A stretch of 64,000 nucleotides of DNA from assembly GCA_016180575.1 (NCBI GenBank), contig JACPAY010000001.1, forward strand, positions 64,857-128,856, written 5' to 3'. The position numbers and the translations under genes were made by a program. This DNA is from Candidatus Omnitrophota bacterium. GTDB taxonomy: Bacteria; Omnitrophota; Gorgyraeia; Aquiviventales; Aquiviventaceae. The notes beneath the pieces were generated by a model that saw only the letters and a program-made list of their open reading frames with translations, did not search any database and was not told the origin of the DNA. Positions 457 to 64,000 of the stretch are shown here, one piece after another (the stretch's first letter is position 1; the number at the start of each line of letters is the position of its first letter).

Positions 457-1288
457 CGCTGGACACCCCAACGAGGCAGATCCCCGCATCACCGGCGGAG
501 GCGATCAGCGCCTCGCGCTCCAGGAGGATCGTGGTACCCGCCTCGACCGCCAGGCAGGAGACGCCGGCCTCCTTGAGCGTGGCGAGCGTGTCGGGGCCGA
601 TGACCGGCAGGTCGAAGCGCCGGTCCTGGCGGGGGGCGGCCGCCTTCACGACGACGAGCCCATCGCCTGCCAGCGCGTGCGCCCGCCGGATGGCGGCGTC
701 GGTGCCCTCCAGCGCCTCCACCGCCACCACCACGCGGTCTTTCACGACCACCGTCTGCCCGACGTCAAGCGCGGCGAGGGCGCGCGCGGCGCGCAACCCC
801 ACGGCGATGTCTTCCTGTTGGGCCGCCGTCGGCCCCGCGGAGGTCAAGGGACCTTCGGGACAGAGGGCGGCGCGGAGGAACGTGGAGGAATCGAGCAGGG
901 TGATGCCGGCGTGGGCCAGCCGCTGGCCGACCGCGCCCAGCAGCGCCCCGGCTGAGAAGTCGGGGGCCTGTCGCAGCACCTCGCGGAGGTCCGCGTCGAA
1001 GGCCGCGGGCTTGCCGAGGAGCACCGCCTTGGTCACCTTGCCGGCCATGATCGCCTCGCGCACGCCGTGCGCCTTGAGGCGCTCGAGGAGCCGCGCGAGC
1101 TGGCCGACCGGGAGCTCCTCATAGGCATCGACCTCCCCGGCGAGGGCGGGGTCCGCCCACCCCTGGATGCCGACGGCGATGACGCGCCGGCCCTGGCGCT
1201 TCGCCTCCCGGGCGACATGGAACGGAAATGACCCCGCCCCGGCAATCAGTCCAAGCACCCGTCCGGTATCTGATACCTTTTTAGACAT
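440..1288 (-). CDS. lpxI: UDP-2,3-diacylglucosamine pyrophosphatase LpxI (DUF1009)
   Basis: 282-aa ORF with an LGLIAGAGSFP N-terminus and an RRFDLPVIGPDT region typical of LpxI. It lies directly downstream of lpxA. ATG 1288 sits in the loop of repeat A1, so GTG at 1258 (MLGLIAG...) is an alternative start. Confidence 0.8.
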   Translation of the reverse strand: MSKKVSDTGRVLGLIAGAGSFPFHVAREAKRQGRRVIAVGIQGWADPALAGEVDAYEELPVGQLARLLERLKAHGVREAIMAGKVTKAVLLGKPAAFDADLREVLRQAPDFSAGALLGAVGQRLAHAGITLLDSSTFLRAALCPEGPLTSAGPTAAQQEDIAVGLRAARALAALDVGQTVVVKDRVVVAVEALEGTDAAIRRAHALAGDGLVVVKAAAPRQDRRFDLPVIGPDTLATLKEAGVSCLAVEAGTTILLEREALIASAGDAGICLVGVSSDDPHP

Positions 1289-1310
1289 CGGAAATGGTAT
1301 CAGATACCGG
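1263..1310. repeat. Family A palindromic pair, copy A1
   Basis: CCGGTATCTGATACC (1263-1277), an 18-nt spacer, then GGTATCAGATACCGG (1296-1310). Perfect 15-bp inverted repeat at the lpxA/lpxI junction. Confidence 0.9.
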
Positions 1311-6344: not shown

Positions 6345-7681
6345 TCCCGAGCTGGCGACTCGAAACGCGTATATTCCTTGATGAACGTCAGCTTGACGGT
6401 GTCGGTCGGGCCGTTCCGCTGTTTGGCGATGATCACCTCGGCGGTGCCTCGATTCTCATCGGTCGGGTTGTAGTACTCTTCCCGGAACAGCATCAGCACG
6501 ACATCGGCATCCTGCTCGATGGCCCCGGACTCGCGCAGGTCCGAGAGGCGCGGGCGCCGCAGCTCCTTCTCAGGCGCCCTCGAGAGCTGGCTCACCACCA
6601 TGACGGGAATGCCCAGCTGCCGCGCCAGCGCCTTCAGCCCGCGGGAAATGACCGAAATTTCCTGCTGCCGGTTCTCCGTGAGGGTGGTGGCATCCATCAG
6701 CTGCATGTAGTCAACAATCACCAGCCCGATGTCATGCCGCCGCTTCAGCCGGCGCGCTTTGGCGCGCAGCTCGAGCACCGTCAGGCCCGGGGTGTCATCG
6801 ATGAAGATGGGCGCTTCCGACAGCTTGCCCGCCGCCTTGGTCAGGTTTGGCCAGTCCGCGTTCGACAGCATGCCGGAGCGGACGTTGTGCGCGTTGATCC
6901 GGGCATGCGAGCACAGCATCCGCTGGACCAGGCTCTCCTTCGACATCTCCAGGCTGAAGATCGCCACGGGCTTCTGCTGGACGAGCGCGACGTGCTCCGC
7001 GACGCAGAGGGCAAACGAGCTCTTCCCCATGGCCGGCCGGCCGGCCACCACGATGAAATCAGACGGCTGCAGGCCGGCCAGGTGCTGATCCAGGTCGATG
7101 AACCCGGTGGGGAGGCCGGTGATCATCCCCTTGCGCTGATAGAGGGTGTCGATCATCTCGATGGAGCTCTTGATGATGTCCTTCATCGAGACCGCGTCGC
7201 GCTTGATCTTGCTCGAGGCGATGTCGAAGATCGCCGTCTCGGCTTCGTCGAGCAGGAGATCCGGCTCCTTCGAGCCCTGGTAGGCGTGATCGCCGATCTG
7301 ATCCGACGCCTGGATCAGCCGGCGCAGGATGTGTTTCTCTTTCACGATGTTGCAGTGGTGCTTCACGTTGGCGGGGGTGGCGACGGTCGAGAGCAGCGCC
7401 AGATAGCTCGGCCCCCCCACCTCGTCGAGGCTGCTCTGCTTTTTCAACGCCTCCGTGAGCGTGAGCAGGTCCACCGGAACGTCTTTCTTGTACAGCTCAA
7501 GGATCGCCCGGAAGATTTTCCGATGGGCGGGTTTGTAGAAGGTCTCCTCTTCGAGGATTTCAGCGGCCTGGGTCACGGCGTCTTCCGACAGCAGCATAGC
7601 GCCTAAGACCGCCTGCTCGACCTCGGGGCTGCTTGGGGGGGTGACGCGAAGATCGGCCGTCGTCAATTCATGCTCAGGCAT
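6341..7681 (-). CDS. dnaB: replicative DNA helicase DnaB
   Basis: 446 aa. N-terminal domain (EVEQAVLGAMLL), Walker A GRPAMGKSSF, IVDYMQLM and the ..VVSQLSR motif. Confidence 0.95.
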   Translation of the reverse strand: MPEHELTTADLRVTPPSSPEVEQAVLGAMLLSEDAVTQAAEILEEETFYKPAHRKIFRAILELYKKDVPVDLLTLTEALKKQSSLDEVGGPSYLALLSTVATPANVKHHCNIVKEKHILRRLIQASDQIGDHAYQGSKEPDLLLDEAETAIFDIASSKIKRDAVSMKDIIKSSIEMIDTLYQRKGMITGLPTGFIDLDQHLAGLQPSDFIVVAGRPAMGKSSFALCVAEHVALVQQKPVAIFSLEMSKESLVQRMLCSHARINAHNVRSGMLSNADWPNLTKAAGKLSEAPIFIDDTPGLTVLELRAKARRLKRRHDIGLVIVDYMQLMDATTLTENRQQEISVISRGLKALARQLGIPVMVVSQLSRAPEKELRRPRLSDLRESGAIEQDADVVLMLFREEYYNPTDENRGTAEVIIAKQRNGPTDTVKLTFIKEYTRFESPARE

Positions 7682-13196: not shown

Positions 13197-13267
13197 CTGG
13201 GGAGCCAGGACTCGAACCTGGACGTGGAGCTTCAAAGGCTCCTGTGCTGCCGTTACACTACTCCCCA
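13197..13267 (-). tRNA. tRNA-Gln (anticodon UUG)
   Basis: Hand-folded cloverleaf: UGGGGAG/CUCCCCA acceptor stem (U1-A72, as in Gln tRNAs), GUGU/GCAC D stem, GGAGC-CUUUGAA-GCUCC anticodon arm and CCAGG-UUCGAGU-CCUGG T arm. The discriminator is G and CCA is not encoded. Ends are good to about 1-2 nt. Confidence 0.9.
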
Positions 13268-14161
13268 TCGCACAGACACCTTCGAAGCCGGCTCACCGCG
13301 CCAGGTCTGCACCACCTCGACGCGCCAGGGATGCCGGCGCAGCGACCCGGCGACGGCCTCCGCCTGGGCCGCGTCGCGGCAGAGGCCGAAGACCGCGGGC
13401 CCGCTGCCGGAGACAGAAACCCCCTCACAGCCAAGACGGCTCAGAGAAGACTGGATGGTCGCAATGACAGGGCAACGCCGGATCGCTATAGGTTGAAGAT
13501 CGTTCCGTAATCCCTTAGCGAGCTCGCCGAGCGAGCCGTTGCGTAAGGCGTGCGTCACCATGCTAATCGAGGAGGGGGGGGCTGTCAAGCTGATTTCCAG
13601 CGCCGCCTCCTGATCCCAGGCCGCGAAGATATCCTTCGTGGTCAGGCGATCCGGCGGCACCGCCAGGACATGGGCCAGCGGCCGCACGCCCGCCAGGGGC
13701 TCGCATCGCTCCCCCCGGCCCCGCCCGATCGCAAACGGGGCCTCGCCAAGAAAGAAGGCGACGTCGGACCCCACGCCCGCGCCAAGCTCGGCGAGCCTGC
13801 CGGGGGGCCATCGGAGATCCCAGAGCGCGTTGAGGCCGAGGAGCGCTGCGGCCGCGTCGGAGGAGCCGCCCCCCAGTCCGGCTGCGATGGGGATGCGTTT
13901 GGCAAGATGGATGCGGGCCCCGCGCGTCAGGCCGCTGGCCTGCTGCAGCGCCCTCGCCGCGCGCAGGACGAGGTTGTCCTCGCCGCAGGAAAGCGCCGGC
14001 TCCGTGCAGGTGAGCGCCAGCTCCCCGTGCGGCTCGAAGGCCAGCTCATCACACAGGTCGATCCGCTCGAAGAGCGTTTCGATCTCGTGGTAGCCGTCAG
14101 CTCGTCGCCCGACCACGCGGAGCGACAGGTTCAGTTTGGCAGGTGCGGACAGGCGTATCAT
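13253..14161 (-). CDS. ispE: 4-diphosphocytidyl-2-C-methyl-D-erythritol kinase
   Basis: 302 aa with PAKLNL.L.V and the GHMP kinase loop PIAAGLGGGSSDAAA. The last 15 nt overlap the 5' end of tRNA-Gln. Confidence 0.9.
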   Translation of the reverse strand: MIRLSAPAKLNLSLRVVGRRADGYHEIETLFERIDLCDELAFEPHGELALTCTEPALSCGEDNLVLRAARALQQASGLTRGARIHLAKRIPIAAGLGGGSSDAAAALLGLNALWDLRWPPGRLAELGAGVGSDVAFFLGEAPFAIGRGRGERCEPLAGVRPLAHVLAVPPDRLTTKDIFAAWDQEAALEISLTAPPSSISMVTHALRNGSLGELAKGLRNDLQPIAIRRCPVIATIQSSLSRLGCEGVSVSGSGPAVFGLCRDAAQAEAVAGSLRRHPWRVEVVQTWRGEPASKVSVRWGVV

Positions 14162-14165
14162 TTAG

Positions 14166-14211
14166 AAGTACCGGGTACTTTTCCCGCTTTGCGAAGTACC
14201 CGGTACTTTTT
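14166..14211. repeat. Family B hairpin repeat, copy B1
   Basis: AAGTACCGGGTACTTTTCCCGCTTTGCGAAGTACCCGGTACTTTTT. It fills the whole transketolase-ispE intergenic gap. Confidence 0.9.
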
Positions 14212-15160
14212 AACCGAGCGCGCTTTGCTTGAGGCGGAGGACGTCCTTGGCGGCCTTGACGAGGTCCTCCGGCATGAGGTGGAACGCCTTCAGGAGCTCG
14301 GCGGGATCGCCGGAGGTGCCGAACCGGTCGAGCACGCCCACGAAGCGCATCGGGACCGGATGCGCCTGGACGAGCAGCTCGGCAACCGCGCCGCCGAGCC
14401 CCCCGAGGACGGTGTGCTCTTCGGCCGTGACGACGGCGCCGGTCTCCTTGGCGGCGGCGAGGAGGGTCGCCTGGTCGAGCGGCTTGATGGTGTGCAGGTT
14501 GATGACGCGCGCCTCGATCCCCTCCTTGGCCAGCTGCTCGGCCGCCTGGAGGGCGTGCGCGACCATGACCCCGCAGGCGACAATGGCCAGGTCGTCGCCG
14601 GGCCGCATCACGACCGCCTCGCCGATCCGGTAGGGATCGGCCTCCTTGGTGATCGCCGGCACCGGCGCCCGCCCGAGGCGCAGGAAGACCGGGCCGGAAT
14701 GGTCCGCGCTGGCGAGCGTCGCCTTCTTGGCCTCCACGGCGTCGCAGGGCACGATCACGGTCATGTGCGGCAGCGTGCGCATGTGCGCCAGCTCCTCCAG
14801 CGCCTCGGCCGTGGCGCCGTCGGCGCCGACCGACAAGCCGCCGTGCGAGCCGACGATCTTGACGTTCAGCTTCTGGTAGCAGACCGCCATCCGGAGCTGC
14901 TCCAGCGCCTTGCCGGTCACGAACTGCGAGAAGGAGCACGCGAAGGGGACCTTGCCCATCAGCGCCAGGCCCGCGGCCGTGCCGATCATGTCCTGCTCGG
15001 CGATGCCGACGGAGAAGAACCGGTCCGGGTACTCCTTCTTGAACCAGATGGCCCGCGCCGAATCCTCCAGGTCGCCGGAGAGCGCCACGACATGCGGATG
15101 CGTCTTCCCCAGCGCCAGCAGCCCTTCCCCGAACCCGTCCCGCGTCGGTTTGCCGGCCAT
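14210..15160 (-). CDS. transketolase, C-terminal (pyrimidine-binding) subunit
   Basis: 316 aa with FFSVGIAEQDMIGTAAGLA and GSHGGLSVGADGATAEALEE. It pairs with the upstream N-terminal subunit. Confidence 0.9.
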   Translation of the reverse strand: MAGKPTRDGFGEGLLALGKTHPHVVALSGDLEDSARAIWFKKEYPDRFFSVGIAEQDMIGTAAGLALMGKVPFACSFSQFVTGKALEQLRMAVCYQKLNVKIVGSHGGLSVGADGATAEALEELAHMRTLPHMTVIVPCDAVEAKKATLASADHSGPVFLRLGRAPVPAITKEADPYRIGEAVVMRPGDDLAIVACGVMVAHALQAAEQLAKEGIEARVINLHTIKPLDQATLLAAAKETGAVVTAEEHTVLGGLGGAVAELLVQAHPVPMRFVGVLDRFGTSGDPAELLKAFHLMPEDLVKAAKDVLRLKQSALG

Positions 15161-18542: not shown

Positions 18543-20132
18543 ATGTTCAAGCGGTTGATTGTTTCGCACCGGATGCGCCGGCGCGTCAGCTGGCTCATCG
18601 CGGCCATCCTCATCCTGCCCTTCATCTTCTTCTTCCACGCCACCGGCCGAGCGCCGTCCCGCGGTCCGGGCGGGACGGCCGGGATCGTCTTCGGCAAGCC
18701 CATCGACTGGGACACGTTCCAGGACGAGCGGCGCTCGGTCCAGCGCCAGTTCGAAGAGCAGTTTGCCGCCCAGTTCGACGCGCTGGGCGAGCTGCTGCAG
18801 CCGATGATCACCGGGGCCGCCTGGGACCGCCTCATCGTGCTCGAAGAAGCCCGCCGGAGGCGGCTGCAGGTGGATGACGCGGAGGTGGCGGCATCCATCC
18901 GGCAGTTGCCCGAGCTCCAGGAGGAGGGCCGGTTCCATCCTGAGCGGTACCATCGGCTCCTGCAGCTTTCCGGGACCACCCCGCAGGCGTTCGAATCACG
19001 GATCCGCCGGGGCCTGCTCATCGAGAAGCTCGTCAGCTCCATCCGGAACGCGGTGACGGTCAGCGACGAGGAGGTGCGCGCCGCCTACCGCAAGGCGCGC
19101 GAGGCTCGCACCGCGTCGCTCGTCCTCTTCGATCCCGCCGCGGCCGCCGAGGAGGCCGCCGCAGCGCTCACCGAGGAGGAGCTGCGCGCCGCCTACGGCG
19201 CCCAGCTTGACACGCTGCGGGTCCCCGAGCAGCTGCGCCTCGAGTACGCCGGGCTCACGCGCGAGGAGATGAGCGCCTCGCTCCAGCTCACCGACGAGGA
19301 CATCCGCGGATTCTACGACACCCACCCGGACCAGTTTGCCCGGAGCGACGGGACGCTGAAGCCCTATGAGGAGGTCCGGGAGGAGGCCCGCCGGCAGCTC
19401 CTGGAGGAGCGGGCGCGCCAGCGGCTGGCCACGCTTGCCGTGGACCTGGAGGAGGACCTCAAGGTCCCGCTCCGGTTCGAAGAGATCATCGCGGCGCGAG
19501 GGCTCTCGCGGCACGCGGCCGGCCCGTTTCCCGCCGGGGCGTCCCACGCGGCCGGCGTGCCGGACCCGGCGATCCTCCAGGCAACCGAGGGGCTGGCCGA
19601 GGGCCGGGTGAGCGGCGTGATTGACACGGGCAGCGCCGTGTATCTTGCCCGGATCACGCAGCGCCTCCCGCCCCGCCTGCCGCCGTTCGAGGAGGCGCGC
19701 GGCGAGGTGCGCTCGACGCTGATCAGGGAGCGCGCGCGGGCCAAGGTCCGGGCGGATGCCGAGGCGTTCCGGAACCGAGTGGCGAATGAGCCGAGGCTCC
19801 GCTTTGAAGAAGCGGCCCTGGCGGCGGGCATCGCCCCCATGCCGGTGGAGGTGCGCCGGGGCCAGCCCTTCGACCCCATCGGCTACCAGGAAGCGCTCAA
19901 CGAGGCGGCCTTCGCGGTCCCGCTGGGCGGCCTCACCGAGGTGTTCGACACCCCGCGCGGGTTCGCCCTCCTCCGGCCGGAAACGCACCTGCCAGCGGAT
20001 GAGTCCCTGTTCGCCGAGGAGGCCCAGACCTTCCGGCCGCAGGTGGAAACCGAACGGCGCAACGCCCGCTTGGCGGAGTGGCTGGAGGAGGTCCGGGCCC
20101 GCGCGAAGCTGCGCAGCTTCGTGGAGGACTAG
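18543..20132 (+). CDS. PpiD/SurA-N-like periplasmic chaperone (peptidyl-prolyl isomerase-like)
   Basis: 529 aa. N-terminal membrane anchor (VSWLIAAILILPFIFFF), a SurA-N-like helical region and a parvulin-like region near the C-terminus. The assignment rests on general architecture only. Confidence 0.6.
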   Translation: MFKRLIVSHRMRRRVSWLIAAILILPFIFFFHATGRAPSRGPGGTAGIVFGKPIDWDTFQDERRSVQRQFEEQFAAQFDALGELLQPMITGAAWDRLIVLEEARRRRLQVDDAEVAASIRQLPELQEEGRFHPERYHRLLQLSGTTPQAFESRIRRGLLIEKLVSSIRNAVTVSDEEVRAAYRKAREARTASLVLFDPAAAAEEAAAALTEEELRAAYGAQLDTLRVPEQLRLEYAGLTREEMSASLQLTDEDIRGFYDTHPDQFARSDGTLKPYEEVREEARRQLLEERARQRLATLAVDLEEDLKVPLRFEEIIAARGLSRHAAGPFPAGASHAAGVPDPAILQATEGLAEGRVSGVIDTGSAVYLARITQRLPPRLPPFEEARGEVRSTLIRERARAKVRADAEAFRNRVANEPRLRFEEAALAAGIAPMPVEVRRGQPFDPIGYQEALNEAAFAVPLGGLTEVFDTPRGFALLRPETHLPADESLFAEEAQTFRPQVETERRNARLAEWLEEVRARAKLRSFVED

Positions 20133-20479
20133 AGCGCGGCCGACCAGGTGTGGTCGGAGAAGTCGAACGGCTTGGTGACGTAGCCGGCCGCCCCGAGGAA
20201 GTACGCCTCGCGGCGCAGCTCATCCCGGTCGAGGGCCGTCACCATGATGATCCGCGCCGTCGGGTGGAGCGCCCTGACGCGCTTGAGGAGCTCAAGCCCG
20301 GAGAGGCCGGGCAACAGGATGTCGAGCAGGATGACGTCCGGCGAGGTACCGGCTTGGAGCCGCTCCAGCGCCTCCTCCGCGCTGAAGGCCGACGCGACCG
20401 CGAAGCCCTTGGCGCTGAAGAACTGCTCGAGGCAGTCGCAGATATCGCGCTCGTCCTCCACGATGAGCATCTGCCGCAT
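20129..20479 (-). CDS. single-domain response regulator (CheY-like receiver)
   Basis: 116 aa: MLIVEDE..., LLDILLPGLSGLELL, IIMVTA and GYVTKPF. Confidence 0.85.
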   Translation of the reverse strand: MRQMLIVEDERDICDCLEQFFSAKGFAVASAFSAEEALERLQAGTSPDVILLDILLPGLSGLELLKRVRALHPTARIIMVTALDRDELRREAYFLGAAGYVTKPFDFSDHTWSAAL

Positions 20480-20492
20480 CCGCTACTCCTCC

Positions 20493-20531
20493 CCGGTATC
20501 AGATACCAAAGCGAGTTTGGTATCTGATACC
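20493..20531. repeat. Family A palindromic pair, copy A2
   Basis: CCGGTATCAGATACCAAA-gcgag-TTTGGTATCTGATACC. 16-bp stem and 5-nt loop, immediately upstream of the SD of the CheY-like gene. Confidence 0.9.
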
Positions 20532-20695
20532 AAAATGGGCTGCTGAAGCCTTCGCTTCGGCAGCCCACCCTTCCGGTGCGACGCACCGGACGCGCGGCTT
20601 TGCGTCCCCCGCTCACGCGGGGTTTGCCTTTCTCGGCGTCCGCGTTGTCTGGTTATAGTCTGCCTGATGCCGGGCGGGATTGGCAAGGGGCGGGG

Positions 20696-21157
20696 CTACT
20701 TTGCCTTGAGGGCGAGGAGCTCCTTGAGCTCCCGCATGAACTGCTCGACGTCCTTGAACTCCCGGTAGACCGACGCGAACCGCACGTAGGCGACGGGGTC
20801 GAGCGCGTGGAGCTTGCGCATCACGCGCTCGCCGATCTCGCGCGACGGCACCTCCCGCTCGAACTGCTGGGAGAGCTCCCGCTCCAGGTCGTCCACCAGC
20901 CGCTCCAGGTCGTCCATGCTCACCGGGCGCTTCTCGCACGCCTTGACGAGCCCGGCCAGCAGCTTGTGCCGGTCGAACGGCTCGCGGCGGCCGTCCTTCT
21001 TGATGACCATGAGCGGCTGCTCCTCCACGTGCTCGTAGGTCGTGAACCGCTTGCCGCACTTCAGGCACTCGCGCCGCCGGCGGACGGAGGCGCCGTCGCC
21101 GCTGCCGCGCGAGTCCACGACCTTGTCCTCCTGGTGGCCGCAGAAGGGGCACTTCAT
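20696..21157 (-). CDS. nrdR: transcriptional repressor NrdR
   Basis: 153 aa: MKCPFCGH...VVDSR......[15 protein letters not shown] zinc ribbon plus an ATP-cone. Confidence 0.93.
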
Positions 21158-22407
21158 GGCGCCCGCAGCTCCGGATAGAGCGGGAACCGGTCCGCCAGCG
21201 CCGCGACCTTGCGCGCCACGTCGGACGGGGCGGCCGGGTCGCCGCGGCGCGTGAGCGTTTCGTCGATGAGCTCGGCGACGGTGCGCATCTCCGCTTCCCG
21301 CATCCCCCGGGTGGTGAGCGCTGGGCTGCCGAGGCGGATTCCACTGGCCTTGCCGGGGGGGAGCGGGTCGAAGGGGATGGCGTTCTTGTTGACGGTGATG
21401 CGGGCCTGCCCGAGGAGCTCCTGCGCTTCCTTCCCGGTGAGCCCCTTCGGCGTCAGGTCCACGAGCAGGAGGTGGTTATCGGTGCCGCCGGAGACGATGC
21501 GGTAGCCGCGCTCGGCAAGCGCCGCCGCCAGCGCCCGCGCGTTGGCCACGACCTGCCGCTGGTAGGCCCGGAACGCGGGCGCCGCCGCTTCCTTGAAGCA
21601 GACCGCCTTCGCGGCGATGACGTGCATGAGCGGCCCGCCCTGGTTGCCGGGGAAGTTCGCCGAGTCGATCGCTTTCGCGTGGGTGCTCCGGCAGAGGATG
21701 AACCCGCCGCGCGGCCCGCGCAGCGTCTTGTGCGTCGTGGAAGTCACAAACTCGGCGTGGGGAACCGGATTGGGGTAGACGCCGGCGGCCACGAGCCCCG
21801 CGAAGTGGGCCATGTCGACGAGCAGGAGCGCCCCGACCGCGTCGGCGATCTTGCGGAAGCGCGGGAAGTCCAGCGTCCGCGGGTGGGCGGAGTAGCCCGC
21901 GAGGATGAGCTTCGGCTTGTGCTCCCGGGCCAGCGCCTCCACCGCATCGTAGTCGATCTGCTCGGTGTCCCGGCTGACGCCGTACGGCACGATGGTGAAG
22001 AACCGGCCGGAGAAGTTCTTCGGGTGGCCGTGCGAGAGATGGCCGCCGTGCGCCAGGCTCATCGCGAGGATGGTGTCGCCCGGCTGGAGCGTGGCGTAGA
22101 AGACGGTGATGTTGGCCTGGGTGCCGGAGTGCGGCTGGACGTTTGCGTGCTCCGCGCCGAAGAGTGATTTGACCCGCTCGATGGCCAGGCGCTCCGCCAC
22201 GTCGACGAACTCGCAGCCGCCGTACCACCGCGCGCCGGGGTAGCCCTCGGCGTACTTGTTGGTCAGGATGGAGCCTTGCGCCTCCAGGACGGCCAGGCTC
22301 GTGAAGTTCTCCGACGCGATCAGCTCCAGGTGCTCGCGCTGGCGCTGCAGCTCGCGCTGGATCGCGTCCGCGATCTCAGGATCCACTGCCCGCAGATGTG
22401 ACATCAT
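21154..22407 (-). CDS. glyA: serine hydroxymethyltransferase
   Basis: 417 aa with [21 protein letters not shown] and [14 protein letters not shown]. Confidence 0.96.
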
Positions 22408-22964
22408 GCACCACCTTTCAAAGTACCGGGTACTTTTCCCGCTTTGGGAAGTACGCGGTACTTTTTCTCGAGGGCGGCGATCTGCTTCACGCGGCGCTCA
22501 TGCCGCCCGCCCGACTCGAAGGGGGTCGCGAGCCACACCTCCGTGATGCGCCTGGCCCGCGCCTCGCTCAGCTTCTCCGCCCCCAGCACGAGGATGTTCG
22601 CGTCGTTGTGGCTGCGGCTGCGCTCCGCATCGAAGGGATCATGGCAGACCGCCGCGCGGATGCCCGGCACCTTGTTCGCCGCGATGGCGATCCCGATCCC
22701 GGACTTGCACAGCAGGATGCCCCGGTCGAACGCCCCCTGCGCCACCGCCGCGGCGACCCGGCCGCCGATCGCCGGATAGTCGCACGGCGCCGCGGAATGG
22801 GTGCCCAGGTCCGCCACCTCCAGCCCCCTCGCCCTCAGCAGCGCCACCAGCTTCGCCTTGAGCTGGAAGCCGCCGTGGTCCGCGCCGACCGCGACCCGAA
22901 CAGGTCCGGTATCAGATACCTTCGAGTGTCTGGATATCTTCTTTTGGTATCTGATACCGGTCAT
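22404..22964 (-). CDS. rpiB: ribose-5-phosphate isomerase B with repeat-encoded N- and C-terminal extensions
   Basis: 186 aa. The core is [13 protein letters not shown]...[20 protein letters not shown]...[13 protein letters not shown]. The only in-frame start is ATG 22964 (ATGA overlap), so repeat A3 is translated as [21 protein letters not shown]. The 3' end reads through repeat B2. Confidence 0.9.
22420..22466. repeat. Family B hairpin repeat, copy B2 (inside the rpiB 3' coding end)
   Basis: AAAGTACCGGGTACTTTTCCCGCTTTGGGAAGTACGCGGTACTTTTT. It is read through as ..[20 protein letters not shown]. Confidence 0.9.
22906..22960. repeat. Family A palindromic pair, copy A3 (translated as the rpiB N-terminus)
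   Basis: CCGGTATCAGATACC (22906-22920), a 25-nt spacer, then GGTATCTGATACCGG (22946-22960). Confidence 0.9.
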
Positions 22965-26113: not shown

Positions 26114-26686
26114 TCACTTCTCCCCCTGAACAGTCGATGTCGGCGGCGTAAAATAAAACGCAACTCCAATCAGCACAAGAAACACCACGAGTGAGGGCAA
26201 TTCAGATGCCGTGCCACCGCGAAGATGTTGTAACATCGCCATGGCATCCTGAATGGCGGTGGGATATCCTCGCACAATTCCAACCACCACCGCGCCGAAC
26301 GCCCAGCCAGCAGCACGTATGAACAAGGGCCATGAAATGAGTGATGAGGTCGTCATGCTCCACCAATATTGGCCGCCGCCCAGTGGCAACAGTTTGATCG
26401 CAAGAAGCGATGACGCCAACGTGAGATACCCACCAACAAGCCAGCAGGCCACTCGTCCAAATGCCCTTCTTTGCATCTGGAGTCTTGAGATGAGCCAGGC
26501 CGGCACGAGGGCCAACAATGCGCTACAAATAGACGCCAACGCAAAAATGGGTGCAAGGTCAGATGCGGCCAGACCTTCAAGGAATCCGAGCCCTGGGCGC
26601 CTCCACACATAAGTGACCCAGTATCCCAAGGCAGGAGCCGGAGAAACTACGAACCAAACCACGACCCATCTCCATCGTCCCCGCAT
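26114..26686 (-). CDS. hypothetical polytopic membrane protein (about 5 TM), low-G+C orphan inside the pur operon
   Basis: 190-aa ORF filling the purM-purD gap exactly. Five hydrophobic segments and no motif I recognise. Hand-counted G+C is 52-57% in four 60-nt lines, against 67% in flanking lines. Confidence 0.5.
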   Translation of the reverse strand: MRGRWRWVVVWFVVSPAPALGYWVTYVWRRPGLGFLEGLAASDLAPIFALASICSALLALVPAWLISRLQMQRRAFGRVACWLVGGYLTLASSLLAIKLLPLGGGQYWWSMTTSSLISWPLFIRAAGWAFGAVVVGIVRGYPTAIQDAMAMLQHLRGGTASELPSLVVFLVLIGVAFYFTPPTSTVQGEK

Positions 26687-34910: not shown

Positions 34911-34920
34911 CGCCAGCCTC

Positions 34921-34961
34921 CCGGTATCAGATACCAATCGGAAAATGGTATCTGATACCGG
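34921..34961. repeat. Family A palindromic pair, copy A4
   Basis: CCGGTATCAGATACC-aatcggaaaat-GGTATCTGATACCGG in the purB 5' leader, abutting the SD GGGAGG. Confidence 0.9.
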
Positions 34962-36687: not shown

Positions 36688-36736
36688 ATAGCGCAATAGT
36701 AGTGTATAGAAGGAACGCGCCGGCCAGGAGGTGTGG

Positions 36737-37642
36737 ATGGACTCAGTCGCAACGGGTGGCATGGTGCTGGCAGCACCGCGGACAAAATGGGAGATCGCGG
36801 CCGGCATCGCCATCGTGCATGCCGGTGCCATGCTGGCGCCCTTCACGTTCACCTGGAGCGCCTTCTGGGTGTTCTTCGTCCTCCAGTTCCTCACCGGCCT
36901 GCTCGGCGTCACGCTCTGCTTCCACCGGCTCCTCGCGCACCGCAGCTTCCAGGTCCCCAAGTGGCTCGAGTACGCCCTGACCGTCTGCGGCTCGCTGGCG
37001 CTCCAGGGCGGGCCCATCAAGTGGGTCGCCACCCACCGGGTGCATCACGCGTTCTCCGACCGCCCGCAGGACCCCCACAGCCCCACCCGCGGCTTCTGGT
37101 GGGCGCACATGCTGTGGCTCTTCGCCTACGATGAGGTGATCGACCATCCGACCAAGTACCACCGCTACGCGCCGGAGCTGGCCCGCGACCCGGTCCACCG
37201 GTTCATCGAGAAGACGTTCGTCTGGCACACCATCCTGTTGGGCGTCGTCCTGTTCGCGGTGGGCGGGCTGCCGTGGCTCGTGTGGGGGTTGTTCTTCCGC
37301 ACCGCCTTCGTCTACCACGCCACGTGGCTCGTGAACTCCGCCGCCCACCTCTGGGGCTACCAGAGCTACAACACGAATGAGGGCTCCCGGAACAACTGGT
37401 GGGTCGCCTTGCTCTCGTACGGCGAGGGCTGGCACAACAACCACCACGCCTACCTCCATTCAGCCGCGCATGGGCTGCGCTGGTGGGAGGTCGACATCAC
37501 CTACCTCACGATCCGCGCGCTGGCCTGGCTGAAGCTGGCCACCCGCATCCGGATGCCGCAGGGCAATCCGGCCAAGCTGCCCGCCATCAAGCCGATTTCG
37601 GTGCGGCCGCTCCGGCTGCCGATCCCGACCCTCTCGGTCTAA
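36737..37642 (+). CDS. acyl-CoA/acyl-lipid delta-9-type fatty acid desaturase
   Basis: His boxes HRLLAH, HRVHH and HNNHH. SD CCAGGAGG lies 6 nt before ATG 36737. The track starts at GTG 36731. Confidence 0.9.
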   Translation: MDSVATGGMVLAAPRTKWEIAAGIAIVHAGAMLAPFTFTWSAFWVFFVLQFLTGLLGVTLCFHRLLAHRSFQVPKWLEYALTVCGSLALQGGPIKWVATHRVHHAFSDRPQDPHSPTRGFWWAHMLWLFAYDEVIDHPTKYHRYAPELARDPVHRFIEKTFVWHTILLGVVLFAVGGLPWLVWGLFFRTAFVYHATWLVNSAAHLWGYQSYNTNEGSRNNWWVALLSYGEGWHNNHHAYLHSAAHGLRWWEVDITYLTIRALAWLKLATRIRMPQGNPAKLPAIKPISVRPLRLPIPTLSV

Positions 37643-37650
37643 CAAAAAAG

Positions 37651-37700
37651 AAAAAGGTACCGGGTACTTTTCCCGCTTTGGGAAGTACCCGGTACTTTTT
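37651..37700. terminator. Family B hairpin repeat, copy B3, acting as a bidirectional intrinsic terminator
   Basis: AAAAAGGTACCGGGTACTTTTCCCGCTTTGGGAAGTACCCGGTACTTTTT lies between the convergent desaturase (stop 37642) and the oxidase IV-like gene (stop 37702). The stem of about 18 bp is flanked by an A-run on one side and a T-run on the other. Confidence 0.75.
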
Positions 37701-37701
37701 G

Positions 37702-37980
37702 TTACAGCCGGATGAGGAAGCTGGAGAAGACGACGCCGAGGGCGAGGGCGATCAGCCCGAAGGGGGCGAGCGCGACGAACGCGAGGAGCCGCCGGTCGCC
37801 CTTGAGGTGCATGTAGAAGAGCGCGACCAGCGCGGCCTTGATGGAGGAGAGCGCCACGACGATGCCCACGATGCCCGCGCGCGGCAGGCGCAGGAGCGGC
37901 CATTCCGACAGGACCACCCCCAGCAGCATGAGCCCTGCCAGCCATCCCCAGATAATCAGATAGAGCCTCGTCCCAGCCAT
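37702..37980 (-). CDS. heme-copper oxidase subunit IV-like small membrane protein (CyoD/QoxD-type)
   Basis: 92 aa with 3 TM. ..AALVALFYMHLK.. resembles prokaryotic COX4 proteins. It directly follows the subunit III-like gene. Confidence 0.7.
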   Translation of the reverse strand: MAGTRLYLIIWGWLAGLMLLGVVLSEWPLLRLPRAGIVGIVVALSSIKAALVALFYMHLKGDRRLLAFVALAPFGLIALALGVVFSSFLIRL

Positions 37981-37983
37981 CGC

Positions 37984-38577
37984 CTAGAAGAGGTAGAGCA
38001 TCGGGAACAGGAAGATCCAGACGATGTCCACGAAGTGCCAGTAGAGACCGGCGTACTCCAGCCGGTGCCCGCGGGCGGCCCACGCCGATTGGGAACGGGC
38101 ATAGGCGAGCACCCAGAGATTGAAGACAATCCCGCCGAGCACGTGCAGCGCGTGGAAGCCGGTCAGGACGAAGTAGCACGACCAGAAGATGTTGGTGCTC
38201 GGAACGATGTGGTGGGAGAACTTCGCGGCGTACTCGAACCCCTTGATGATGAGGAAGCAGGAACCCAGCCCGGCTGTCGCCAGCAGCCAGCCGCGCGTCA
38301 TCCCCAGCGCCCCCCGCCCGGAGGCGGCCAGCGCCAGGACGATGGTCGTGCTGCTGCAGATGAGGATGAGCGTGTTGGCCGTCCCGATCCCCACGTTCAG
38401 GTGCCCCTCGGAGCCCGGCCAGGCGGGGTTCCCCATCCGCAGCACGATGTAGGCGCCGATGAGGCCGGTGAAGAACATCACCTCCGAGGCGAGGAACACC
38501 CACATCCCCAGCTTGCCGCTGGGGATGTGGGTGGCGGTCTCAACCGCGGGATGACCCGCCGTCGCGGTGGTGCTCAT
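37984..38577 (-). CDS. heme-copper oxidase subunit III family protein (CyoC/QoxC/NorE-like)
   Basis: 197 aa with 5 TM: GMWVFLASEVMFF.GL, FHALHV.GG and WHFVD.VW.FLF. No subunit I or II gene is present in the window. Confidence 0.85.
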   Translation of the reverse strand: MSTTATAGHPAVETATHIPSGKLGMWVFLASEVMFFTGLIGAYIVLRMGNPAWPGSEGHLNVGIGTANTLILICSSTTIVLALAASGRGALGMTRGWLLATAGLGSCFLIIKGFEYAAKFSHHIVPSTNIFWSCYFVLTGFHALHVLGGIVFNLWVLAYARSQSAWAARGHRLEYAGLYWHFVDIVWIFLFPMLYLF

Positions 38578-39959: not shown

Positions 39960-40871
39960 TCACGGCCGCGCCGGCGTTTCGGCGGGCTGGCCGCCGAGGA
40001 CCTGGACGTAGATGGCGCGGGCCCGGTCGGCTTCCTCCGCGAGCCGCGCAAAGGGCGGGATGTCCTCGTCCCATTCGATCAGCGTGGTCACCGGCCCCCA
40101 GCGGGTGAGCGCCTCCCGGTAGAGCGCCCACACCTCGTCGATGACGGGGCGGCTGTGCGTGTCGAAGAGGTACCCGCCCATGTCGGTGTGCCCGGCGAGG
40201 TGGAACTGGCCGACCAGCTCGCCCGGGATGCCGCGGAGGTACTCGAGGGGGTCGAACTGGTGGTTGTAGGCGTTGACGTACACGTTGTTCAGGTCAAGCA
40301 GGATGCCGCAGCCGGAGCGCTCGGCGACGGCGGCGAGGAACTCCCATTCCGGCATCGTCGAGTGCCGGTAGGTCACGTAGGCGGAGACGTTCTCCAGCAG
40401 GATCCGGCGCCCGAGCCGCTCCTGCACCTCGCCCACCCGGCCGGCGACGTGCCGGACCGCTTCCTCGGTGAACGGCAGCGGCAGCAGGTCGTGGAGCTGC
40501 TCCCCCTCCACGCCGGTCCAGCAGAGATGGTCGGAGACGATGGCCGGGTCGATGCGGTCCGCGAGCGCCTTGAGGCGCTCAAGGTAGCGGGGATCGAGCG
40601 GGTCGGAGGAGCCGATCGAAAGCGAGACGCCGTGGAGCGCGACAGGATAGCGGCGGCGCACCGCTTCCAGGATGCGCAGCGGCCGGCCCCCGGAGTCCAT
40701 GAAGTTCTCCGAGATCGCCTCGAACCAATCCATGCGCGGCCAGTCGCGGGTGATGAGGTCGTAGTGCTCGCTGCGCAGCCCCACGCCGCAGCCCAGCGAC
40801 GGCCACCTGGAAAAATGGGACCGGGTGTATTTTTCTATGGTCCTCTGATTGAAAAATATACCCGGTCCCAT
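39960..40871 (-). CDS. bufB: DUF692 / MNIO family (multinuclear non-heme iron oxidative) RiPP-modifying enzyme
   Basis: 303 aa with GVGLRSEHY, FEAISENF, VALHGVSLSIGS, SDHLCW and a TIM-barrel-like pattern. The only in-frame ATG (40871) lies inside repeat B'. CTG after an AGGTGG SD is an alternative start. Confidence 0.85.
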   Translation of the reverse strand: MGPGIFFNQRTIEKYTRSHFSRWPSLGCGVGLRSEHYDLITRDWPRMDWFEAISENFMDSGGRPLRILEAVRRRYPVALHGVSLSIGSSDPLDPRYLERLKALADRIDPAIVSDHLCWTGVEGEQLHDLLPLPFTEEAVRHVAGRVGEVQERLGRRILLENVSAYVTYRHSTMPEWEFLAAVAERSGCGILLDLNNVYVNAYNHQFDPLEYLRGIPGELVGQFHLAGHTDMGGYLFDTHSRPVIDEVWALYREALTRWGPVTTLIEWDEDIPPFARLAEEADRARAIYVQVLGGQPAETPARP

Positions 40872-40905
40872 TTTTCGGTCCCGTTTTTTCCCGGTCCCGC
40901 GGTCC
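40810..40905. repeat. Family B' repeat array between bufA and bufB
   Basis: GAAAAATGGGACCGGGTGTATTTTTC (40810-40835), a 15-nt spacer, then GAAAAATATACCCGGTCCCATTTTTC (40851-40876). The inverted repeat matches at 25/26. It is followed by degenerate GGTCCC(G)TTTTT units up to 40905. Confidence 0.85.
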
Positions 40906-51420: not shown

Positions 51421-51426
51421 GAAGTC

Positions 51427-51491
51427 CCGGTATCAGATACCAACCCCCGATTGGTATCAGATACCGACTTCTACTTGGTATCTGATACCGG
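51427..51491. repeat. Family A, three-unit copy A5
   Basis: Units at 51427-51441 (centre A), 51453-51465 (centre A) and 51477-51491 (centre T), between the PNP gene and mtnA. Confidence 0.9.
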
Positions 51492-60505: not shown

Positions 60506-60535
60506 ATTTTAAACCAACTAGTTGGTATATATCTA
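60506..60535 (-). promoter_or_regulatory. operator T2 and candidate internal promoter upstream of the Cys-rich gene
   Basis: Perfect 14-bp palindrome ACCAACTAGTTGGT (60513-60526), lying between a TAGATA-like -35 and a TAAAAT -10 on the minus strand. Confidence 0.5.
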
Positions 60536-60549
60536 GGCCAAAAAAGAGG

Positions 60550-61152
60550 CTACTGGCCGAAGAGCATCTTGAGGTACGCCTTGAAGTGCTTCAGGTTCGC
60601 CGCGGCCGCCTTCATGTCCCGCGTCGCCTTCCCCAGGATCAGCGACCCCTCCAAGATCGCCAGGAGGTGGTTGGCCAGCTCGCGCGGCTCGAAGGCGGTC
60701 TTCGGGGGGTGCTGCGCTTTGGCGCGCGCCAGCTCCTCGGCGAACTGGCTCGCCCACCCCTCAAACCCCTCCGCGCAGGCCTCGCGGATCGAGGGGTTGA
60801 CGTCGCACAGCTCCTGCGCGAAGGAGCCCAGCAGGCAGCCTTTCGTCGACGGGTCCTCGACCATCCGCGCCGCGCTGTCCACGTAGGCATACACCCGTTT
60901 CAGCGGATCGCGCTCCTGGCCGTAGAATCCCCGGTGGAGCGCTTCCCCCTGCGCGCAGAACCGCTTCAGCAGCTCCCGGCCCAGGTGGTCCTTGCTCTCG
61001 AAATAGTGGAAGAAGCTTCCTTTCGTGAGCCGGGCCGCCTCGCAGATGGCTTCCACGGTCGTCGCCGCGTAGCCCTTGGCCAGCATCAGCCGCTCGGCGG
61101 CGTCGAGCAGCCGGTCCCGTGTCGGCGAATCAGCTGTGGCGGTTCGCATCAT
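60550..61152 (-). CDS. TetR/AcrR family transcriptional regulator
   Basis: 200 aa. N-terminal HTH TRDRLLDAAERLMLAKGYAATTVEAICEAARLTKGSFFHYF. Confidence 0.85.
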   Translation of the reverse strand: MMRTATADSPTRDRLLDAAERLMLAKGYAATTVEAICEAARLTKGSFFHYFESKDHLGRELLKRFCAQGEALHRGFYGQERDPLKRVYAYVDSAARMVEDPSTKGCLLGSFAQELCDVNPSIREACAEGFEGWASQFAEELARAKAQHPPKTAFEPRELANHLLAILEGSLILGKATRDMKAAAANLKHFKAYLKMLFGQ

Positions 61153-61158
61153 GAAGAT

Positions 61159-61205
61159 ACCTACCAGTTGGTATGATAATACAGGGCCGGGTGCCTCCCT
61201 GTCAA
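61159..61205 (-). promoter_or_regulatory. tetR promoter with operator T1
   Basis: Minus-strand TTGACA-N18-TATTAT followed by ACCAACTGGTAGGT (61172-61159). That sequence matches the T2 palindrome at 12/14. Confidence 0.6.
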
Positions 61206-63026: not shown

Positions 63027-63060
63027 AAGCCACGCGGCGGCGGCCTTCGCGACTGTGTTA

Positions 63061-63352
63061 AGAGCTCCTAACGAAATACCCCGCGGCCGCGACGGGCCGA
63101 GGCGCGAGGCCCGCAAGGCGCGAGGAGCGTAGCGTACCAGCCCTGGCGGTACGCGAGCGACGAGCAACGCCGCGGGCCGACGCGGATCGGCCCGTCCCCT
63201 GCGTCTGACGACAGGGTTGCGGCGGCAGGGCCCGTAGCCAGCGTTGCTCCTCCTCGACGTATCGCTTCCTGCTGATACGCCTTCGTCGTCGCGCCTTGGC
63301 CACGGGCCCTGGCGCACGCAACGCGGCTCGCGCGGTATTTCGTTAGGAGCTC
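63061..63352. mobile_element. MITE-like non-autonomous element (292 bp, 19-bp perfect terminal inverted repeats, TAA flanks)
   Basis: GAGCTCCTAACGAAATACC at 63061-63079 and its exact reverse complement at 63334-63352. The match is 24/25 when extended. TAA lies on both flanks (63058-60 and 63353-55). The interior is G+C-rich, partly self-complementary and has no credible ORF. Confidence 0.55.
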
Positions 63353-64000
63353 TAAGACGGGGGCGCATCAGGGGCTTCGCGCGATGCCAGCGCCGGCAAG
63401 ACGAACAACGCCGCCACGGGAACCAGGAGCGTGCCGAGCACGATCGAGAGCCCGAACCGCTGGGTCGGCGGAAAGGCCGACAACCCGAAGACGCCGAAGC
63501 CGGCGCACACGACGACCGTCGCCGTGGTGATCGGCCTCCACATCCGGTTCCGCGCTTCGACCCAGGCCTCCCACCTGATCGGCCCAGGGCCGGAGACCCG
63601 CCGCCCGATGTTCATCAAATGCAGGAGCGAATCAATCCCCATTCCCACCGCCAGATTCGCCGCGGGAGCCGAGATGACATCAAAGGGCATCCGCAGGTAG
63701 CCGATGAGCCCGAGCATCCACAGCGGAATGAGCGCCACGCTGCCCACGACGGCCGCGGCGATCCTCCACGAGCGCGTCCAGCCCCACACGAGCCCGAAAA
63801 ACGCGACCCCCAGGCTCAGGAGTCCCCACAGCAGGCTGGAGACCACCAGCCGGGAGAGCTTGCCCTGCAGCACGTAGACCCCGCCCACCAGGTGCGGCGC
63901 AAACCCCGCCGTCTGCACGACGTCCTTCAGGCGCGCCACCGTGGCGAGGCGCGACCCCACCCGGCCGGCCTCCCGCATGAGGAGCAGGAACAGCCCCTGC
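63352..64000 (-). CDS. RND/MMPL-superfamily transporter, C-terminal fragment (5' part beyond window edge)
   Basis: Open frame to the window end. Multi-TM C-terminal bundle (..NLAVGMGIDSLLHLMN.., ..VVCAGFGVFGLSAFPPTQRFGLSIVLGTLL..). The stop TAG abuts the MITE-like element. Confidence 0.65.
   Translation of the reverse strand, partial: QGLFLLLMREAGRVGSRLATVARLKDVVQTAGFAPHLVGGVYVLQGKLSRLVVSSLLWGLLSLGVAFFGLVWGWTRSWRIAAAVVGSVALIPLWMLGLIGYLRMPFDVISAPAANLAVGMGIDSLLHLMNIGRRVSGPGPIRWEAWVEARNRMWRPITTATVVVCAGFGVFGLSAFPPTQRFGLSIVLGTLLVPVAALFVLPALASREAPDAPPS

Follow-up and report, generated by a model that had tools for sequence, protein, structure and literature searches.

The repetitive extragenic palindromic (REP) sequences and bacterial interspersed mosaic elements (BIMEs) of Escherichia coli and the REPINs (REP doublets forming hairpins) of Pseudomonas fluorescens are built from a short palindromic unit that, as an inverted doublet, folds into a long hairpin; the units also occur as singlets and in higher-order clusters, with several groups of related sequence in one genome and compensatory substitutions between the two sides of the hairpin, and they are dispersed in intergenic gaps where they are gained and lost as a unit with no regular target duplication (PMC3116915, PMC5581495). 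REPINs also insert beside existing REPINs (PMC3116915), and the arrangement that defines these systems is a single gene for a Y1/HUH enzyme, the REP-associated tyrosine transposase (RAYT), flanked by REP sequences (PMC3116915, PMC5581495). Here we analyze family B, a family of hairpin-forming repeats present in a 64,000-nt stretch of DNA from a Candidatus Omnitrophota bacterium (JACPAY010000001.1; hereafter the window, to which all window coordinates refer). We put the probability at about 0.7 that family B is a REPIN-type element, that is, an inverted doublet of a self-palindromic 15-nt REP unit, with the mobility and the effects that we propose below.

Other groups of small repeats invite comparison. 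Rickettsia palindromic elements are ~100-150 bp long, are typically internal to genes and can be translated. Correia elements (CREE or nemis) of Neisseria are small inverted-repeat elements of 100-150 bp at gene boundaries that have 26-bp inverted ends, a regular TA duplication, promoters and a site for integration host factor (IHF), and that give long RNA duplexes affecting transcripts through termination or RNase III cleavage (PMC10969869). SPRITE of the pneumococcus is an AT-rich, terminator-like small dispersed repeat with AAAA/TTTT ends and an ~18-bp duplex followed by a U-rich tract; it lies near gene 3' ends, is enriched between convergent genes and has been proposed as a co-opted terminator (PMC3049150).

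The family B consensus, AAGTACCGGGTACTTTTCCCGCTTTGGGAAGTACCCGGTACTTTTT, matches the window exactly three times, at 14166-14211 (B1), 22421-22466 (B2) and 37655-37700 (B3), each time on the plus strand and with 1 mismatch, compared with no match in shuffled sequence, and a covariance model of the family run over the window found no B copy beyond these. The first-pass annotation of the window had claimed three near-identical copies in which each arm is its own palindrome and the partner arm carries the complemented centre. Both claims were borne out, the second with a single exception. The two arms are 15-nt self-palindromes, AAGTACCSGGTACTT, with complementary centres (CGG and CCG), except that arm 2 of B2 has the centre GCG, which creates a mismatch in the stem. 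When up to 2 mismatches are allowed, the arm occurs six times in the window, confined to the three copies, and its 11-nt core reads GTACCSGGTAC. The order of parts is fixed and the backbone AT-rich (A run, arm, TTYCCGCTTTGRG, arm, T run), with a GC content of 48-50% in the copies against 69% in the window, and stop codons are absent from all six frames. Through pairing of the two arms, all six transcripts (B1-B3, both strands) fold into a long bulged hairpin of ~18 bp (-31.4 to -35.4 kcal/mol, z = -4.7 to -6.5). None of the three copies matched an Rfam 15 family at its gathering score (the best sub-threshold match reached 27 bits against a cut-off of 62, and only chance-level matches appeared at E <=10), and a built-in terminator scan made no usable call at B1-B3 and did not report the full hairpin because the stem is bulged.

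To place these copies, we compared the window with its relatives, whose loci carry L numbers below. The closest assembled relative is nzgw327 (GCA_023247155.1), one contig of which is syntenic with the window over ~18-62 kb at ~87% nucleotide identity; the closest relative is a Hainich contig (L122), whose GlyA is 95% identical. The first-pass annotation had held that copies unique to the window would be no family. They are not unique: nzgw327 (L043, L063) and three groundwater metagenome contigs (L118-L120) hold further family B copies, at sites unrelated to those of the window. At least four B-type sites are present in nzgw327, three on a 40-kb contig and one on another contig, and several of the further copies carry a third arm, added by a 28-nt tandem step. 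As expected of a repeat, the short Logan unitigs of this organism, drawn from two sequencing runs, break inside B1.

Filled and empty orthologous sites were found at four junctions, namely rpiB-glyA, tkt-ispE, the gap between a riboswitch and a response-regulator gene, and the gap between a phosphatase gene and rpiB. The rpiB-glyA junction holds two arms in the window, three in nzgw327 (reaching the glyA ATG) and none in L122 or L137, and in L135 (Ga0212128 / Ga0209399) it holds a copy of a related family, E, whose backbone and left boundary are those of B. At the tkt-ispE junction we found B in the window, E in L135, and a toxin-antitoxin pair, another hairpin or nothing in other relatives. 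The toxin-antitoxin pair, of the PhdYeFM/ParE type, occupies L130 1998-2594, in the gap that B1 fills in the window, and this junction appears from the comparison to be a recurrent landing site for mobile DNA. No regular target duplication is seen, with TA flanks at only some copies. A Pfam scan of the window detected housekeeping genes only, with no transposase or insertion sequence (IS), and no IS was seen among the genes called on the assembly-derived relative loci. On the evidence of these sites, family B is a dispersed element that is gained and lost, and not a terminator that evolved locally.

To ask where else the arm core occurs, we scanned 185,579 species genomes for pairs of GTACCSGGTAC separated by 10-26 nt and obtained at least 117 loci in many phyla, a raw count that is uncalibrated against control cores. 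Among the matches listed, many are trivial (GTACCGG)n heptamer arrays or direct tandem repeats, and about 55 of the 167 motif pairs are inverted G..C doublets; multi-copy inverted doublets among them come from Halanaerobium, Clostridia, Halobacillus, Planctomycetia, Gemmatimonadota and other Omnitrophota. The largest clusters of genes near the listed loci encode ABC ATPases, regulators and similar proteins, and one cluster, of five loci, is a RAYT-like gene. A Y1 gene is thus flanked by the core 11-mer in 5 of the 117 listed 8-kb loci, where ~0.3 would be expected (P ~2e-5). Two of the five hosts are Omnitrophota (L101, L115), two are Clostridia and one is a Halobacillus.

The RAYT-like genes encode proteins of ~160-225 aa and lie directly between or beside the arms. 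PF01797 (Y1_Tnp) matched all four proteins tested (L030, L101, L103, L115), and for the three compared with NCBIfam (L030, L101, L115) the best match was NF047646, REP-associated tyrosine transposase, with one reaching the curated cut-off. Their sole match in the PDB is 4ER8, TnpArep of E. coli, and the HUH motif and catalytic tyrosine are invariant. The proteins are only 29-40% identical to one another, yet the flanking 11-mer is identical. We infer from this arrangement that the source genome of the window belongs to a REP-RAYT system. In the mechanism that we propose, a Y1/HUH transposase would recognise the small hairpins of the arms in single-stranded DNA and would insert the doublet, in a single orientation, at AT-rich places where genes end, leaving no regular target duplication, and a third arm could be gained by the 28-nt tandem duplication. 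The paired core matched viral contigs only 3 times, giving no sign of phage carriage. Our literature search on the 11-mer returned only unrelated primers and tRNA sequences (a 1987 gonococcal paper proved a false lead), and we found no report of such elements in Omnitrophota. In a separate observation, the Halanaerobium loci (L002, L003, L019, L021, L028, L050, L061, L075 and others) have constant 11-mers, GTACCGGGTAC...GTACCCGGTAC, around inner palindromes that differ from copy to copy, a pattern of conserved outer module and variable hairpin interior.

Family B is one of several arm families. Those of A (GGTATCWGATACC), B (AGTACCSGGTACT), D (AGTGCCWGGCACT) and E (GGTGTCWGACACC) all fit RGTRYC-N-GRYACY; the 64-kb window holds five A copies and one long hairpin, C, beside the three B copies, and D and E were found in relatives. 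Families E and B have a backbone in common, which in E reads A run, arm, TTYCCGCTTTGRR, arm, T run. In an alignment of 13 B and E copies, 89% of the cells of the long hairpin and 95.5% of those of the arm-internal hairpins are paired, and six to seven pairs are changed on both sides, changes that in essence go back to two events, one the B/E swap and the other the B3 ortholog. In L135, E and D take the place of B and A, and 11 arms lie within 21 kb; its family D copies have an internal insert of 85-95 nt between the arms and resemble larger inverted-repeat elements. Exchange of families is also seen in the operon of a PNP_UDP_1 (purine/methylthioadenosine-phosphorylase-family) gene and a MtnA-like (IF-2B family) gene, where the gap holds a three-arm A element in the window and a three-arm B element in nzgw327 (L063 766-840), both spanning from stop codon to ATG.

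Two of the sister copies touch other features. A c-di-GMP-I riboswitch (58 bits; window 20556-20638, minus strand) lies upstream of a single-domain response-regulator gene (20129-20479), and a family A hairpin, missing in two relatives, stands between the T run of its terminator and the Shine-Dalgarno (SD) sequence, so that the expression platform appears, to judge from the sequence, to have been altered by a mobile insertion. A second family A copy of the window is likewise missing from nzgw327 and L122. The family C hairpin, a weak structural relative of B (27 bits with the covariance model), lies at the start of a MbnB/DUF692-like gene beside a gene for a BufA1-type precursor, in an operon that is bufferin-like by synteny, and is partly kept in nzgw327 (L123 13669-13707). 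Part of it, GGGACCGGGT, resembles a motif, GGGACAGGT, found beside the REPs at the Omnitrophota RAYT genes of L101 and L115.

An alternative is that family B is a miniature inverted-repeat transposable element (MITE) of the Correia or SPRITE kind, moved by a DDE-type transposase (IS630/Tc1-like) that inserts at and duplicates TA, with the arms as terminal inverted repeats. SPRITE offers a published precedent in its AT-rich, terminator-like form, B1 is bounded by TA...TA such that excision of 46 nt restores a plausible stop-start (GGT TAA ATG), and TA is present at both ends of B3 and of the family D copies in nzgw327 and L135. However, of the flanks that we inspected, those of B2, of L063, L118, L120 and L121, of all family A copies and of the family E copies at L135 678 and 9946 have no matching TAs, and where genes converge, the TAs on either side simply belong to the two TAA stop codons. 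Duplication of a TA target is an attractive idea at B1 but was rejected as a general property. Moreover, no IS was seen in the window or among the genes called on the assembly-derived relative loci, and the arm core flanks RAYT genes, not DDE transposases. We consider a DDE-type MITE unlikely.

Bidirectional intrinsic terminators are known between convergent genes, and B3 has their layout. It takes up all 59 nt (37643-37701) that separate the TAA of a desaturase gene (37640-37642, plus strand) from the TAA of a COX4-like gene (37702-37704, minus strand), is flanked by A5 and T5-6, folds on both strands (-32.8 kcal/mol on plus, -31.4 kcal/mol on minus), and in both directions of transcription places a U tract after the stem (UUUUUGUU in the plus sense, UUUUUCUUUUUUGUU in the minus sense). 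The geometry of a bidirectional terminator that the first-pass annotation had seen here is thus confirmed, down to an exactly filled gap. By exchange of a U-A pair for G-C and remodelling of its inner stem, the ortholog in nzgw327 (L123 10931-10982, AAAAAAGTACCGGGGACTGTTCCCGCGTTGGAACGTCCCCGGTACTTTTTT) has kept a long hairpin of 17+5 bp, together with A6/U6 flanks, but it has lost the self-palindromy of the arms. Therefore, what appears to be conserved in place at this gap is a long hairpin at the position of a terminator, whereas the palindromy of the arms looks like a trait of the family as a whole, which would fit a part in spreading and not in local function. In more distant relatives, the same convergent gap holds ordinary GC-rich hairpins followed by T-rich tails. 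On these features B3 is a plausible candidate bidirectional intrinsic terminator, and its hairpin, between the two stop codons and with runs on both sides, would most likely terminate both genes. As such it would differ from other bidirectional terminators in being a copy of a repeat family, in its unusual length (~18 bp plus the tip) and in its A-U rich base.

B1 and B2 lie inside operons. The 48 nt that separate the stop codon of the transketolase C-terminal subunit gene (14210-14212) from the ispE ATG (14161) are filled by B1, and we looked for an SD sequence before ispE in this gap and found none. The mRNA reads the reverse complement of B1, with CUUCUAAA after the stem and no U tract. B2 forms the end of rpiB, whose TGA (22404-22406) overlaps the glyA ATG (22407); its transcribed strand has CUUUGAAA after the stem and likewise no U tract. 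The first-pass annotation was right about the gap filled by B1, the missing SD sequence, the U tracts truncated in the transcribed sense and the position of B2 in the rpiB coding end, and wrong about the distance from B2 to the glyA SD sequence (AAGGTGG), which is 3 nt and not 10. Because B2 is read as the last 18 codons of rpiB, translating ribosomes would open its hairpin, and a role as an attenuator is unlikely; the absence of stop codons from all six frames of the family would make such read-through insertions harmless.

E. coli REPs stabilise upstream mRNA and attenuate transcription, and they reduce translation of the gene before them when they lie within ~15 nt of its stop codon. By analogy, an attenuator or stabiliser role for B1 is plausible: its hairpin, lacking a U tract and placed between a stop codon and a start with no SD sequence, would be tolerated and would probably protect the 3' end or attenuate, whereas B2 would simply be translated. 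At all seven independent in-operon sites of B and E, the mRNA carries CAAAGCGG, so that orientation is fixed relative to transcription (p = 0.016), and this would reflect strand-specific insertion, selection against the terminating orientation, or both. The idea that one repeat family serves as terminator or as attenuator or stabiliser, depending on erosion of the flanks, therefore stands in part. The family is real, B3 has the geometry of a terminator and both U tracts, and B1 and B2 lack theirs; against it, in-operon copies of relatives at L043 and L120 retain a U5 tail, B2 is translated, and the element is mobile, not a hairpin built by the host. Fixed orientation is the clearer regularity.

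It could also be that the primary selected role of family B is at the RNA level, with mobility incidental: the element would bring together a stop codon and a start without an SD sequence for re-initiation, or serve as a processing or stability site that sets the ratio of cistrons. B1, the copy upstream of the MtnA-like gene in nzgw327 and the A copy at 51425-51490 all fill their gaps exactly, with the stop codon at or in the 5' foot, the ATG 1-8 nt past the 3' foot and no SD sequence, and three-arm copies allow mutually exclusive pairings. The fixed orientation fits such a role but is equally expected from strand-specific transposition of single-stranded DNA. In addition, relatives manage without the element at these junctions, the upstream reading frame continues through B2 and its orthologs, and B3 has no downstream cistron. 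A primary role in RNA is, in our judgement, improbable.

We also considered whether the arms might be operators of a dimeric DNA-binding protein such as LexA, with the copies marking a regulon. The arms are perfect 15-nt palindromes at a fixed 28-bp spacing, all arm families fit one pattern, and AGTAC-N3-GTACT fits the cyanobacterial-type LexA box, RGTACNNNDGTWCB. However, none of the copies is at a promoter, their places being 3' ends, operon gaps and the inside of a coding end; the housekeeping genes beside them are unrelated to one another; a single genome harbours two arm families; and the B3 ortholog loses the palindromy of its arms but keeps the pairing between them, with backbone and tip conserved too. 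We rejected this explanation, which is very improbable, because of where the copies lie, because several arm families coexist and because the ortholog retains inter-arm pairing only. That the copies are terminator hairpins of independent origin, or local duplications, with no mobility is scarcely credible: B3 does lie where a terminator is expected and relatives have other hairpins in the same gap, but 46-nt sequences with at most 1 mismatch to the consensus stand at three unrelated sites in the window and at further unrelated sites elsewhere, with clean presence and absence at orthologous sites.

Measured against the described systems, family B shares with REP/REPIN-RAYT the features listed at the outset for the palindromic units and their doublets, B2 in the last codons of rpiB being an exception to intergenic placement, and it has the same arm core directly flanking Y1/HUH genes, in other genomes. 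It differs in that its unit is a perfect 15-nt self-palindrome where that of REPs is imperfect, its doublet is only ~46 nt long and AT-rich in a 69% GC genome, its core is identical across phyla despite the divergence of the transposases, and its host belongs to the Omnitrophota. SPRITE is the closest functional analogue, like family B in composition, ends, duplex, position and proposed co-option as terminator, but SPRITE arms are non-palindromic and have no known transposase link, whereas family B is also frequent in operons, in one fixed orientation. Family B resembles the Correia elements in being a small inverted-repeat element at gene boundaries that forms long RNA duplexes; their greater size, 26-bp inverted ends, promoters, IHF site and regular TA duplication set them apart, the TA flanks of family B being irregular. 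The likeness to Rickettsia palindromic elements lies in B2, which adds 18 residues to RpiB as an in-frame translated palindromic repeat, with the difference that it merely replaces a C-terminal tail.

Several points weigh against the reading of family B as a REPIN-type element. A GTAG (GT[AG]G) head 5' of the palindrome is a criterion for the REPs of E. coli and Pseudomonas, and the arms of family B carry GTAC in its place; that head may be specific to proteobacterial groups. No RAYT gene was found in the window or in ~230 kb of DNA from the high-GC clade, an absence that is expected and uninformative because RAYT is a single-copy gene. REP systems number tens to hundreds of copies in a genome, and only three family B copies are present in 64 kb. 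B1, B3 and two family D copies stand between TA and TA, a hint of target duplication, which HUH transposition does not make. The A-U rich base of the stem beside the U tract of B3 is suboptimal for intrinsic termination, and compensatory changes could stem from template-switch correction inside the palindrome, not from selection on RNA. We regard family B as an ordinary kind of element in a little-studied phylum.

A wider proposal, which we offer tentatively and think doubtful, is that the core GTACCSGGTAC marks a previously undescribed REP-RAYT class that spans phyla (Omnitrophota, Planctomycetota, Halanaerobium, Clostridia, Halobacillus and Gemmatimonadota) and whose DNA target stayed constant while the transposases diverged. 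In high-GC Omnitrophota this class would have diversified into the arm families A, B, D and E, which would replace one another at the same junctions and serve the host as terminators and operon spacers, a domesticated supply of hairpins. The pattern of sites may simply mirror the scarcity of permissive AT-rich sites in a tightly packed genome of 69% GC.

Table 1 Coordinates of family B, its sister families, neighbouring genes and RAYT-like genes. MAG, metagenome-assembled genome; ORF, open reading frame.
Feature	Sequence	Position	Strand	Basis or remark
B1, fills transketolase C-terminal subunit-ispE gap in minus-strand operon	window	14162-14211	+	covariance model, 74.6 bits; folds
B1 arms	window	14166-14180, 14194-14208		
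B1 TA flanks	window	14163-14164, 14211-12		
Transketolase C-terminal subunit gene, stop TAA abuts B1	window	14210-15160	-	Pfam labels on syntenic loci
ispE, ATG 5 nt past B1 stem, no SD	window	13253-14161	-	product 100% identical to P0241, IspE of a Candidatus Omnitrophica MAG
B2, within rpiB 3' end	window	22421-22466	+	sequence; folds; orthologous-site comparison
B2 arms	window	22421-22435, 22449-22463		C>G at 22455 mismatches stem
rpiB, last 18 codons encoded by B2	window	22404-22900	-	compared with L122, where the element is absent
glyA (serine hydroxymethyltransferase), downstream of B2	window	21154-22407	-	
B3, full element with A-rich and T-rich flanks	window	37643-37701	+	sequence; ORFs; folds; covariance model R1, 74.8 bits; nzgw327 ortholog
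B3 arms	window	37655-37669, 37683-37697		
B3 tip, CCC-GCTTT-GGG	window	37672-37682		
Fatty-acid desaturase gene, ends at B3 left foot	window	36731-37642	+	ORF; PF00487 on homologues
COX4_pro-like small membrane protein gene, ends at B3 right foot	window	37702-37980	-	ORF; Pfam labels on syntenic locus L123
COX3, upstream of COX4_pro-like gene	window	37984-38577		
Family A, three arms, fills gap upstream of MtnA-like isomerase gene	window	51425-51490	+	
Family A, between c-di-GMP-I riboswitch terminator stem and response-regulator SD	window	20491-20532	+	absent in nzgw327, L122
Family A, between low-molecular-weight phosphatase gene and rpiB	window	22906-22960	+	absent in nzgw327
Family A, just upstream of purB	window	34919-34960	+	
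Family A, reversed arm order (T centre, then A centre), lpxI start	window	1264-1308	+	
Family C long hairpin (arms AAAAATGGGACCGGGTRTATTTTTC), start of MbnB-like gene, bufferin-type operon	window	40810-40889	-	-47 kcal/mol
Family E/D sites	L135	672-727, 9937-9995, 15974-16032, 20779-20847; 5316-5433, 14261-14384		
RAYT-like Y1 gene flanked by GTACCSGGTAC	L101	979-1660		
RAYT-like Y1 gene flanked by GTACCSGGTAC	L115	3772-4475		
RAYT-like Y1 gene flanked by GTACCSGGTAC	L030	5683-6580		
RAYT-like Y1 gene flanked by GTACCSGGTAC	L103	7500-7998		
RAYT-like Y1 gene flanked by GTACCSGGTAC	L041			

Other features of the window and its relatives were noted in passing. A 23-nt inverted repeat (TTAAGAGCTCCTAACGAAATACC / GGTATTTCGTTAGGAGCTCTAAG; window 63052-63081 and 63334-63359) brackets ~255 nt of GC-rich sequence upstream of a msrA domain; it resembles a different small inverted-repeat element and probably explains an over-long msrA ORF. 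Two palindromes, ACCAACTAGTTGGT and CCTACCAGTTGGTA (60515-60535 and 61155-61175), flank a TetR-family gene (60550-61152) and are likely its operators. A lower-GC stretch of ~570 nt (26114-26686, minus strand) encodes a predicted 190-aa membrane protein inserted between purM and purD, which are adjacent in nzgw327. Elsewhere in the clade, unrelated AT-rich inverted-repeat elements of ~115 nt (GGTAGTGCATCAATTTGAAACGATTTCGCAGATTG...) occur at L124 12700-12800 and 13378-13493 and at L126 1471-1610, and different small repeat families thus appear from their sequences to have colonised different lineages. The DnaB gene of one relative (L138 16845-19448) has an intein with a LAGLIDADG domain, which the dnaB of the window (6341-7681) is without.

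REPIN-RAYT systems have been worked out almost wholly in Proteobacteria, and family B would show one in Omnitrophota, a phylum known almost solely from metagenomes, with a REP core common to very distant bacteria and with insertion sites that can be seen clearly before and after the event. The element accounts for odd AT-rich islands and assembly breaks in these MAGs and for spurious extensions of reading frames (the tail of RpiB and the starts of purB, lpxI and the MbnB-like gene), and annotators should bear in mind that some "terminators" and operon spacers here consist of mobile DNA. If the exchange of arm families and the reuse of sites are as proposed, these genomes would offer a natural system in which to follow the co-diversification of a transposase with its DNA target and the co-option of mobile hairpins by their host as terminators.

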